Positions 18,679 to 20,535 of a stretch of DNA of 64,000 nucleotides are shown here, piece after piece. Both the position numbers and the translations under genes were made by a program. Each line of letters starts with the position of its first letter. Position 1 is the first letter of the stretch. The notes under the pieces are model-generated. The model searched no databases and was not told where the DNA came from. It was given only the letters and a program-made list of their open reading frames with translations. This DNA comes from a virus (lineage: Duplodnaviria > Heunggongvirae > Uroviricota > Caudoviricetes): the IMG/VR virus record IMGVR_UViG_3300045988_154391; one strand, written 5' to 3'.

Positions 18679-19367
18679 GCTGCACCATCACCTTTCACTT
18701 TCATCAATGTCAGGTTTCCGCAAAATACGGCACCAGTGTCGATATACTGCTGATTCCAGAATGTCTTCGGGCTTTTCACCGGAGTGTGACCAAAGATAAA
18801 ACGATCTGCGCCCGAAATTTCGCCACCAATATCATCCATCGAATCACTGATACGCTCGCGCGCCCAGACAACGTTGAAAAGCGGCACCTCCTTACCGAAT
18901 TGATATTCATTATCCGGATAGTCGGCATGGGCTATAACGATAGTTTCTTGCCCGATGTTCAACTCAATGATATAGGGCAGTCGTCTTACCAACTCCACCA
19001 GCGCCCTGGCTAATATTTCCTGATCAGCGTCCAGCATGAAGAACCATTGACCGCCATTCATTAGCCAGTTATTCACGTTGCCATCAGGACTTAACGCATC
19101 AATCATCAGCCGCTCATGGTTGCCCATAACCGCTCTGAACCATGGCATCTGCAATAGCTCCAGGCATTTAACATTTTCGGTGCCGCGATCGATAATGTCG
19201 CCGACCGATATCAGTAAATCCTGCGCAGGGTCAAAATCCACACGATGGAGTTCGGACATCAGTCTGGTGTAGCAACCATGCAGATCACCAACAACCCAGA
19301 CATTCCTGTATTTGGTACCGTCGATACGGTGATAAATTGTGGGTGCTATCATGTATTCTTCAGCCAT
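18675..19367 (-). CDS. ppp: Ser/Thr protein phosphatase (lambda PPase / calcineurin-like metallophosphatase)
   Basis: 230 aa; GDLHG, GDIIDRG and GNHE metallophosphatase motifs. Confidence 0.8.
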
Positions 19368-19975
19368 TCTTTAAGAGTCATCTGCGGAATACCTCCCATT
19401 TTCCCGCATGAAACAACGTCAATCTGTTCACGCGCAGACTGGAATAACAAAGGCAGGTGACTTAGATTTTTTGGCGTGCCGCCGGAGTGAACTCGTGGCT
19501 CTTGCGTAGCGTCAACGCCCACCAGGGCTACATGTTTGAATCCGATATGGAAAGCCAGGTTCAGAGCACCATATGCACTATTGCCGCTGGCAATTTCATT
19601 CTCATCTTCGCAAAGGCCGAAATGTCCGGACCAGCGCCACGCCCACCACTCGGGAGAATTCGTATTTTTTGGCTCCATGCCGCGTTCAGCCACACGACGG
19701 AAGCACAGAACGCCGTCTCTGACTTCACGTTCTTTAACATCGGGTAGTGCCATGCAATAACAAACACCACGGCGACGGCGGCCACGACCAACGCGCCGCA
19801 TATTGTCTGGCGATGGATCAAGTGTGAAAAAATAAGAAGCGCGGTTAAGCGAGTCGATGGCCCCATTGACCGCTATAATCGGTACTCCGCGCGGCGCAAC
19901 AAAGTTTGCGGCGCTTGGGCCACTGCCGACGATAATAACGCGATCACTGCCTCTAAATTTATTCTTGGGAAACAT
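19349..19975 (-). CDS. MptE/DUF115-like protein, paralogue 1
   Basis: 208 aa; VIIVGSGPS...IIAVNGA; its 5' end overlaps the upstream paralogue by 103 nt. Confidence 0.45.
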
Positions 19976-20535
19976 TGAATTGCACTGCTCCTACTTGCAT
20001 TCAAAATATGTAAATCTGCGTGTTTTTTGCGGGTATCCAGGAACTGCTGTTGCCATTTTGAAATAGACACCTGCGTTGGATTCCGTAGTGCTTGAGGGTG
20101 CGCGCCATGCCAATGAAGGCCGTTTTGCAGAGAACAGTCATAGCCGACTAATACCACTACTTCAGCCCCTGATTCAGCAGCCAGACTGATAGCCTGCGCG
20201 CCGCTATTTACCCCTTCCGCCGGTCCACAATATCGCCTGTACTCCAACGAAAATGATTTCGCCGCCGCCAGGTTGGCTGTCACTTTGCGGAACCTCCCTC
20301 CCGGTATGGTGGAACCGTATTGCTTCCACCATGACAAATCACCGGCGTATAAGGCATAAATGTCATCGAACATCTGCCAGGAATTGTTAACCGCGATGAT
20401 TGAACAGCCAGTTTTTTCTATAGCAGCACAGTCCTCACGAGTGAGTGAAGGACCGCTACCGACACAAAAAACAGTCCTAGTCGCCCTGGGTGGTATGTTC
20501 ATTCTCAGCTGCAAATTCAGCCTCCAGGCGAGCAT
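19873..20535 (-). CDS. MptE/DUF115-like protein, paralogue 2
   Basis: 220 aa; VFCVGSGPS...IIAVNNS. Confidence 0.45.
   Translation of the reverse strand: MLAWRLNLQLRMNIPPRATRTVFCVGSGPSLTREDCAAIEKTGCSIIAVNNSWQMFDDIYALYAGDLSWWKQYGSTIPGGRFRKVTANLAAAKSFSLEYRRYCGPAEGVNSGAQAISLAAESGAEVVVLVGYDCSLQNGLHWHGAHPQALRNPTQVSISKWQQQFLDTRKKHADLHILNASRSSAIQCFPRINLEAVIALLSSAVAQAPQTLLRRAEYRL

Follow-up and report, generated by a model that had tools for sequence, protein, structure and literature searches.

Two adjacent genes on the minus strand of a tailed-phage sequence (Caudoviricetes, IMG/VR record IMGVR_UViG_3300045988_154391; the 64,000 nucleotides analysed are called the window here) share 103 nt, and the question that this locus raises is whether such a long overlap is real and meaningful and what the two related proteins might do. 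The window belongs to a P1-like phage-plasmid, a 2.8-kb query (17900..20700) having 98.1% DNA identity to P1 and 97.0% to P7. The upstream open reading frame (ORF; 19873..20535, minus strand, 220 aa) is P1 pmgO, called hdmB in P7, and the downstream one (19349..19975, minus strand, 208 aa, ATG at 19975..19973) is P1 pmgP, or hdmC in P7. The shared stretch is 19873..19975 (minus strand, 103 nt), and pmgP is in the -1 frame relative to pmgO. The GenBank record of P1 (AF234172; pmgO 79592..80254, pmgP 80152..80778) already contains an identical overlap of 103 nt, and hdmB and hdmC are annotated with the same overlap in the P7 record (AF503408). Both genes and the overlap had therefore been annotated before in P1 and P7 and are not new. 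The original prediction, made from the sequence alone, suggested a comparison with P1 homologues but did not recognise that the two ORFs are the annotated P1 genes themselves. We consider it close to certain that these are pmgO and pmgP, that the overlap is real and that the two proteins are paralogues. On balance, and with much less assurance, we favour as an overall explanation that the P1 paralogues PmgO and PmgP act with the product of the nearby gene pmgQ in the glycosylation of proteins, the overlap being a by-product. The public annotation of P1 gives for pmgO and pmgP merely a "putative morphogenetic function", and in the literature that we searched no paper assigns a function to pmgO, pmgP or pmgQ.

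The overlap is not a sequencing frameshift, because the 1187-nt segment covering pmgO and pmgP aligns over its full length and free of gaps in 84 independent P1-like copies, which represent 56 haplotypes. The scan of viral contigs yielded 80 near-identical P1 copies that were used for the analysis of substitutions and not as a measure of diversity. The start of pmgP is also well delimited. There is an in-frame stop five codons before ATG 19975, and this ATG is the sole canonical start until M59 (19801). Residues 12-58 of PmgP hold the first beta-strand, the GSGPS loop and the motifs IIAVN and FFTLD, they vary little or not at all among 28 homologues that range from Enterobacteriaceae to Ochrobactrum, and in the predicted structure they have a predicted local distance difference test score (pLDDT) of 92.6. 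A later start cannot remove the overlap, since initiation at M59 would lose these invariant motifs. In many database entries PmgP begins past the pmgO stop, among them the annotation of phage phiNP and protein cluster P0003 (373 member sequences), and if they were right there would be no true overlap and PmgP would run from V31 with 178 aa. We regard this as extremely improbable. In the window the V31 codon is GTA, so that no such start exists and the next canonical one is M59. Besides, residues 12-30, with strand 1 and GSGPS, are part of the nucleotide-binding fold and nearly invariant in the 28 homologues, distant bacteria included (I15, V16, G19, P20, A22, F25 and P28 among them). Finally, six of the seven changes located 5' of codon 31 are synonymous in the pmgP frame, which indicates that this stretch is translated. 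On these three grounds the start at V31 was rejected. Position 19883 of the window is an A (Tyr218 in PmgO and GTA for V31 in PmgP), and a G is found in all 84 other P1-like copies (Cys218 and GTG). The members of P0003, which begin from the GTG at V31, have the nucleotide-binding loop cut off. The 103-nt overlap described at first is thus genuine, with matching coordinates, 84 indel-free copies and a single usable pmgP start. A later Met that removes it together with a lack of paralogy would have spoken against the description, and this combination was not found.

It had also been suggested that the overlap could reflect a frameshift or programmed recoding. The two ORFs would then be one gene split by a mutation or a sequencing error, or a -1 frameshift would make a PmgO-PmgP fusion. 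An error is excluded by the absence of indels in the 84 independent copies. As to recoding, pmgP does lie in the -1 frame, the pmgO frame of P1 contains the heptamer A_AAT_TTA (19954..19960), the P1 sequence also has T_TTC_CCA, and there is one natural in-frame O-P fusion (P0171, 376 aa, from a single metagenomic contig). However, A_AAT_TTA is confined to P1-type sequences and is absent in Salmonella, Pantoea and other relatives, and five lineages (L117, L086, L104, L108 and L105) have no heptamer at all. By our estimate (34 codons x 1/256) about one X_XXY_YYZ heptamer is expected by chance in every eight overlaps of this kind. No stimulatory RNA structure was apparent downstream, the folding being no better than that of shuffled sequences (z=0.22 around the start and z=+0.89 for the 99 nt downstream). 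Moreover, pmgP has its own ATG and a Shine-Dalgarno (SD)-like motif in a conserved position, and most lineages keep the two genes separate, reordered or far apart. The fusion P0171 shows that joining the two proteins is tolerated, not that P1 produces such a protein. Programmed recoding thus finds no support in these data, and taken together the frameshift explanations are very unlikely.

The two halves of the overlap are subjected to different constraints. The 5' half (~19936..19975) codes for the conserved end of PmgO and for the unconserved N-terminus of PmgP, and the 3' half (19873..19935) for the conserved strand 1 of PmgP with GSGPS and for a PmgO tail. All seven variable sites of the overlap among the 84 copies are located in the 3' half (PmgO residues 204-218), and they are non-synonymous in pmgO in seven of seven cases and synonymous in pmgP in six of seven. 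The PmgO tail, which is also a low-confidence part of the predicted model, is therefore unconstrained, its last ~17 residues being free to change. In the 3' half purifying selection acts on pmgP alone and not on both frames. The 5' 50 nt showed no variation in the 84 close copies, too few events to judge. The length of the overlap changes widely between lineages. It is 103 nt in P1, 94 nt in Citrobacter phage phiNP and an E. coli prophage, 70 nt in a Salmonella P1-like plasmid, 49 nt in Pantoea, 40 nt in a Salmonella relative and Chimaeribacter, 37 nt in E. coli phage EP_H11, 13 nt in Zhongshania, 11 nt in Pseudomonas and 7 nt in Brevundimonas; Ochrobactrum has none and Microbulbifer ~133 nt. 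In order to have a reference, we generated 20,000 synonymous recodings of PmgP with the local codon usage and scored the length over which the pmgO frame stayed open. In 26% of them this length was 103 nt or more (minimum 40, median 46), and the length of the overlap is thus not beyond chance.

The position of the pmgP start is much more conserved than the length of the overlap. In all enterobacterial lineages the pmgP ATG is found inside conserved PmgO codons x-Cys-Phe (caATGt; Gln-Cys-Phe in P1), 10-12 codons 5' of LExx(I/L), the conserved end of PmgO, and a GGAG or AGGAG lies over the invariant Ser181-Arg182 codons of PmgO, 12-13 nt 5' of the ATG. In the window the SD-like AGGAG (19988..19992, minus strand, 12 nt 5' of the pmgP ATG) derives from the codon of the invariant R182 and that of the next Ser (AGG AGC), and GGAG or AGGAG occupies the same place in L116, L085, L117, L086 and L108. 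The PmgO homologues stop at varied points past the conserved end CFPRxxLExxL, and their tails are an alternative-frame reading of the 5' end of pmgP. Because the ATG is embedded in conserved PmgO codons and the SD-like motif has a conserved position, an overlap of ~37-40 nt would be ancestral in the enterobacterial clade, with pmgP translated from an internal site and probably coupled to the translation of pmgO. In P1 the pmgO frame would run on to the next stop, giving a tail of ~20 unconstrained residues and the 103 nt observed. One point speaks against this scheme: the SD spacing of 12 nt exceeds the optimum, and we infer both coupling and the use of the internal SD from the sequence. With that reservation, the overlap is very probably incidental, a neutral and lineage-specific extension of a short coupling overlap.

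The kinship of the two proteins is apparent from the motifs VFCVGSGPS...IIAVN in PmgO and VIIVGSGPS...IIAVN in PmgP, on which the original prediction had based its claim of paralogy. Pairwise BLASTP recovers the N-terminal 36 aa only (E=0.004). When the PmgO profile (27 sequences) was compared with the PmgP profile (28 sequences) by hhalign, the probability was 97.7% with E=1.6e-12 over 164 aligned columns, spanning PmgO 16-200 and PmgP 7-203, i.e., nearly the full length. This E-value places the paralogy well beyond chance and bears out the claim, and the cross-matches among PHROG families agree with it. On this comparison PmgO and PmgP are ancient, distantly related paralogues of ~200 aa. 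In PmgO the conserved core covers approximately residues 21-200, and the ~20 aa at each end are unconserved.

The same prediction had placed both proteins in MptE/DUF115, and at the level of superfamily this was right. Sub-threshold matches to Pfam PF01973 (MptE-like/DUF115) were obtained for 26 of the 27 PmgO and all 28 PmgP homologues (best E 3e-8 and 1e-6), and one member of the PmgP family, P0217, reaches 44.1 bits, above the threshold of PF01973. Fold searches with both models gave the same top folds, Maf (5mu5), MptE (8sd5) and the sialyltransferase Cst-I (2p56), with SteA, thiamin pyrophosphokinases and GT29 sialyltransferases at lower ranks. The predicted fold is hence shared with two solved DUF115 members, Maf and MptE. 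A fold search of BFVD retrieved only uncharacterised DUF115 proteins of phages and giant viruses. When the PDB was searched with the sequence profiles of PmgO and PmgP only noise was obtained, which made a search by fold necessary, and NCBIfam returned nothing for PmgO, PmgP or PmgQ. A nucleotide-binding loop G-x-G-P-S follows the N-terminal strand in both proteins (VGSGPS, after strands E21-25 of PmgO and E12-16 of PmgP in the models), with G28, P29 and S30 invariant among the PmgO homologues and G19 and P20 nearly invariant among those of PmgP. There are also invariant histidines, H173 in PmgP and H141, H143 and H146 in PmgO. The models thus point to divergent members of the DUF115 (MptE-like) superfamily, with the Rossmann-type fold common to Maf and GT42. 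The RefSeq name "alpha-2,3-sialyltransferase" is a transfer at the level of fold, without a demonstrated activity.

A third protein accompanies this pair. PmgQ (hdmD in P7; 17977..18678, minus strand, 233 aa) matches phrog_1962, annotated as "glycosyltransferase", with 3.7e-128, and its profile (17 sequences) hits Gat1 (6mw5, E=6.3e-8) and glycogenin-1 (E ~3e-7) over ~150 residues. It contains the motifs D79-L-D81 and H208-G-x-P-R-P, in which D79, D81 and H208 are invariant and G209, P211, R212 and P213 nearly invariant among the 17 sequences. A DxD, a C-terminal motif of the type H..G..(K/R)PW and profile similarity to solved GT8 enzymes are all present, as in a GT8-like retaining glycosyltransferase. 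The Pfam GT8 model itself is not reached by the PmgQ family (2 of the 17 members at E ~0.18). Homologues of O, P and Q co-occur in Pantoea, Chimaeribacter, Pseudescherichia, Zhongshania, Microbulbifer, Brevundimonas, Sinomicrobium, Pseudomonas and others, in gene orders that include O-P-Q, O-Q-P and P-MT-Q-O (MT, methyltransferase). Only Q-P or P-Q was found in Buttiauxella, Methylophilaceae and Ochrobactrum loci, where PmgO was undetected, and a Longimicrobiales locus has P and Q ~3.5 kb apart. The PmgP family amounts to 539 clusters at 50% identity among the 1.84 billion representatives searched. Natural fusions join P to Q (P0182 and P0250), Q to P (P0275) and O to P (the above-mentioned P0171), and others include a methyltransferase, Q-P-methyltransferase (P0229) and methyltransferase-P (P0265). 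Methyltransferase genes (Methyltransf_23/25, FkbM) also appear beside or inside the cassette in L093, L099, L100 and L107. This co-occurrence across phyla, in distant bacteria and phages, together with the natural fusions, indicates that O, P and Q are functionally linked.

The gene between pmgP and pmgQ, ppp (18675..19367, minus strand), codes for a lambda-type Ser/Thr phosphatase (Metallophos 5.2e-15; NF008516 8.6e-82, under the cut-off). It is found only in close P1-likes (L083-L085 and L116) and is absent from all other loci examined, including L117; in a Salmonella P1-like relative ppp is missing and pmgP abuts pmgQ. Judged by its distribution, ppp appears to be an insertion of the P1 lineage outside the conserved cassette, and on the same basis it was rejected as a component of the pathway. 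The enzyme cluster first envisaged around the pair thus keeps the DxD ORF at 17977..18678, that is pmgQ, and loses the phosphatase, restricted as it is to P1-likes. A second phosphatase gene, pap (15834..16340), belongs to the HAD type and is related to the polynucleotide kinase-phosphatase domain (PF25109, 6e-12); neither ppp nor pap accompanies O-P-Q outside the P1-likes. The functional unit suggested by these gene neighbourhoods is pmgO-pmgP-pmgQ, with or without a methyltransferase.

The places where this cassette is found give some indication of its target. In Pseudomonas, Ochrobactrum and Zhongshania prophages it is located directly 3' of the major capsid gene and before the connector genes. 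No evident Ser/Thr-rich extension, as a mark of an acceptor site, was found in the capsid proteins encoded beside it. The virion structural module includes the glycosyltransferase genes in D3-like phages and in prophages of Pseudomonas, Ochrobactrum, Zhongshania and Brevundimonas, and not in P1 or in lambdoid prophages. In D3 a PmgO-like gene is right behind the capsid gene, and in PAJU2 one is found in the head-tail region, where its product (ORF010) is annotated as "structural protein". In these two phages (PAJU2, L114 4474..6417; D3, L113 6894..8289) a conserved uncharacterised ORF of ~275 aa and a methyltransferase gene join the PmgO-like gene in the head-tail block, and D3-like Pseudomonas phages have those two genes in place of PmgP and PmgQ. 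Two phage-like contigs carry the cassette with ribonucleotide reductase genes. Chromosomal copies were detected in five Enterobacteriaceae (L087-L091), four Pseudescherichia assemblies and one metagenome-assembled genome of an unclassified member of the family. In the one with gene calls (L110, the same as L088; 1380..15359) four large Big_1/invasin/inverse-autotransporter adhesin genes are interspersed with O, P and Q, housekeeping genes lie on either side and no phage genes are nearby, and the other four loci have the same spacing and orientation of O, P and Q. PmgO, PmgP and PmgQ have no hydrophobic segment, which indicates soluble proteins. PADLOC gave no match for PmgN (the product of the small gene that heads the operon), PmgO, PmgP, PmgQ or Ppp, and a role in defence or anti-defence was rejected for this reason.

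We propose that PmgO, PmgP and PmgQ, in many relatives together with a methyltransferase that uses S-adenosylmethionine, would be a soluble cytoplasmic cassette that builds a short glycan. The acceptor would most likely be a protein: for the phages, virion or capsid proteins that are synthesised late in the infection, and for the Enterobacteriaceae island, surface adhesins. As a speculation, the donor of the two DUF115 enzymes could plausibly be a keto-sugar acid activated with cytidine monophosphate (CMP), such as CMP-Kdo (Kdo, 3-deoxy-D-manno-octulosonic acid). Protein glycosylation is the best-supported reading because of the capsid and adhesin contexts and because the nearest relatives are protein-directed, the closest solved ones, Maf, glycogenin and Gat1, all glycosylating proteins. 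That O, P and Q form a glycosylation cassette seems to us probable; that the acceptor is a protein is a serious possibility for which we would not yet claim as much. The genes pmgO, pmgP, ppp and pmgQ were non-essential in a genome-wide study by CRISPR interference, consistent with earlier knockouts (PMC10695390). Dispensability for plaque formation fits an accessory modification. Only tentatively do we extend the idea to its widest form, in which O-P-Q with or without a methyltransferase would be an unrecognised protein-glycosylation cassette, widespread in phages of Gram-negative hosts. Its two minimal Maf/GT42-like transferases and its GT8 enzyme would add a short glycan, methylated in some cases, to capsid proteins or others of the virion, that of P1 included; Kdo from the CMP-Kdo pool of the host might be one of its sugars, and Enterobacteriaceae would have co-opted the cassette for inverse-autotransporter adhesins.

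Several observations weigh against protein glycosylation as described here. The literature searched contains no biochemical or genetic evidence for an activity or substrate of PmgO, PmgP or PmgQ. Glycosylation of the P1 virion has not been reported, and it goes unmentioned in the main text of the paper on the virion proteome of P1. In P1 itself the cassette is not adjacent to the capsid gene, and in six lambdoid-type lineages it is found beside lysis genes, a typical moron site that is uninformative about a virion target. The window proteins score 23.4 (PmgO) and 21.0 bits (PmgP) against PF01973, below its gathering threshold of 34.6. GT8 also contains transferases of the lipopolysaccharide (LPS) core, and a faint WaaZ_KDO_III match on one fusion fits an LPS target.

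Some of these points lead to the main rival, a remodelling of the envelope in which PmgQ, like WaaO or WaaJ, and the DUF115 pair, like the Kdo transferase WaaZ, modify the LPS core or another envelope glycan and so mask the receptor, limiting superinfection or the loss of progeny on debris. The receptor of P1 is the LPS core. LPS-core enzymes are included in GT8 (also bioRxiv 10.1101/2023.12.21.572611), the O-P fusion P0171 has the faint match to PF27901 (WaaZ_KDO_III), and moron-type sites by the lysis genes are frequent for the cassette in lambdoid prophages. However, the WaaZ match was not reproduced in the 27 PmgO and 28 PmgP homologues scanned, and in several prophages the cassette is part of the late operon, with capsid genes on one side and connector genes on the other. 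The P1 cassette lies behind an operator of the C1 repressor (Oppp, formerly Op83; 20676..20692, plus strand, upstream of pmgN and annotated at the homologous position of P1), so that it would be off in lysogens, and synthesis late in infection leaves little time to alter the LPS of the outer membrane. The chromosomal copies, too, are found among adhesin genes and not among LPS genes. We consider envelope remodelling unlikely, if still the strongest competitor. The link to WaaZ and Kdo was itself discarded as a lead, being a single faint precomputed match on P0171 not seen again in 55 homologues.

Next in rank, and improbable, is that PmgO and PmgP are pyrophosphokinases of the MptE or thiamin pyrophosphokinase type whose substrate is a small molecule (cofactor or nucleotide-like signal). 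The sole Pfam family matched is named MptE-like and P1 has the phosphatase gene ppp inside the cluster, but ppp is absent beyond close P1 relatives, and the conserved or fused partners are a GT8-like glycosyltransferase and methyltransferases of sugar type (FkbM, Methyltransf_23). No pterin, folate or thiamin genes were found in ~20 neighbourhoods. The best structural neighbour is moreover the glycosyltransferase Maf, and the sialyltransferases Cst-I and GT29 match as well. Least credible among these readings of the function is that the cassette glycosylates phage DNA, i.e., takes part in base hypermodification like other phage GT-A or GT-B enzymes that act on 5-hydroxymethylcytosine (5hmC). 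To our knowledge P1 DNA is not hypermodified, and the chromosomal adhesin island does not fit this idea. DNA methylase genes do occur near some loci, and phage GT8-like GT-A and Kdo-adding enzymes that modify 5hmC DNA have been described (bioRxiv 10.1101/2023.12.21.572611). The same work indicates that such pathways need a C5-methyltransferase plus a 5mYOX/TET enzyme or a hydroxymethylase, and none of these adjoins the cassette in the loci examined. The absence of genes for base hydroxymethylation makes DNA glycosylation unlikely in the extreme.

Returning to the window, pmgN, pmgO, pmgP, ppp and pmgQ form an operon in which all junctions overlap (by 59, 103, 19 and 4 nt). It is headed by pmgN (20477..20665, minus strand), a small ORF also annotated in P1 that overlaps the start of pmgO by 59 nt and had no family match in the searches run on it. 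The first ~20 residues of PmgO are unconserved and poorly modelled (pLDDT ~49-62), and in its homologues the first residue corresponds to about residue 7-12 of P1; with M12 (ATG 20502) as the start, the overlap between pmgN and pmgO (20477..20535) would shrink from 59 to 26 nt. The sequence block containing Oppp is identical in the window, P1 and P7, and its position implies that the whole operon would be repressed in the lysogen. Further neighbours are pmgR, pmgS and pap. On the other side pmgM (20699..21277) reaches 21.1 bits for a VRR-NUC nuclease domain, slightly under the threshold of 23.8, and the PHROG that it matches carries the annotation Holliday junction resolvase, so "putative morphogenetic function" is probably a misnomer for pmgM too. 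The product name "norphogenetic protein" is a typing error that comes from the note to P1 pmgM and has spread through RefSeq to PmgP homologues in many genera.

The junction is also badly served by gene callers. In phiNP (L104 6012..7091) and some assemblies pmgO is unannotated, and PmgP has been given the late start (junction also in L115 and L108). In D3 (L113 4837..5555) the PmgO-like ORF seems to be annotated from a late start (orf7) and overlaps "orf6.5" upstream; the tblastn match reaches 96 nt 5' of the orf7 start in the same frame. Protein cluster P0122 (48 member sequences) represents a variant with one additional A in the A6 run at 20023..20028 (coding strand of pmgO) that truncates PmgO at ...RKKTRRFTYFECK*, 5' of the pmgP ATG, with loss of the invariant N179, S181 and R182. 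Either this is an inactivating mutation that recurs, or the homopolymer was misread in sequencing.

The locus as first noted is thus a rediscovery of two P1 genes that are non-essential and already annotated, with a neutral overlap that results from where a stop codon falls. What emerges from the comparison is that the "putative morphogenetic" pmgO, pmgP and pmgQ of P1 represent one conserved and sometimes fused glycosyltransferase cassette that appears beside capsid or adhesin genes. If virions are glycosylated by it, capsid glycosylation by phages would extend from mycobacteriophages to phages of Gram-negatives, including a model phage that is genetically easy. This would have a bearing on the immune recognition and stability of therapeutic phages, and a large group of small DUF115 proteins would have its first known function. 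The hypothesis is easy to test in P1.

The system can finally be set against those already known. The pmgO and pmgP of P1 (hdmB and hdmC of P7) are the same genes, placed identically with respect to their neighbours and with the same 103-nt overlap, and no structural difference separates them from those of the window; its PmgO has Tyr218 where the other 84 P1-like copies have Cys. The Maf flagellin glycosyltransferases (DUF115, 5mu5) are proteins of ~600 aa with extra N- and C-terminal domains and use CMP-pseudaminic or CMP-legionaminic acid as donor, whereas PmgO and PmgP are a bare catalytic domain of ~200 aa with 16-20% identity to them. We know of no synthesis of either pseudaminic or legionaminic acid by E. 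coli K-12. Identity to the GT42 sialyltransferases of Campylobacter, Cst-I (2p56) and Cst-II, is 12-15%, and the acceptor of the Cst enzymes is lipooligosaccharide. MptE (8sd5), the archaeal 6-hydroxymethyl-7,8-dihydropterin pyrophosphokinase, and the thiamin pyrophosphokinases differ in their chemistry, a pyrophosphoryl transfer from ATP. The GT8 enzymes glycogenin and Gat1 (Skp1 alpha-galactosyltransferase, 6mw5) resemble PmgQ in the DxD and the C-terminal motif H-x-x-G-x-x-(K/R)-P-W, and PmgQ is shorter than they are (~210-230 aa in the family). Cytoplasmic glycosylation of autotransporter adhesins provides a further precedent. The closest functional one for a cassette placed behind the capsid gene comes, as far as the accounts cited here go, from mycobacteriophages, in which cytoplasmic glycosyltransferases encoded by the phage decorate capsid or tail proteins (Freeman et al. 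2023, cited in PMC12582341; Maravista note, PMC11256854). There the hosts are Actinobacteria and the glycosylation has been shown by experiment, whereas in the Gram-negative phages considered here it is inferred.

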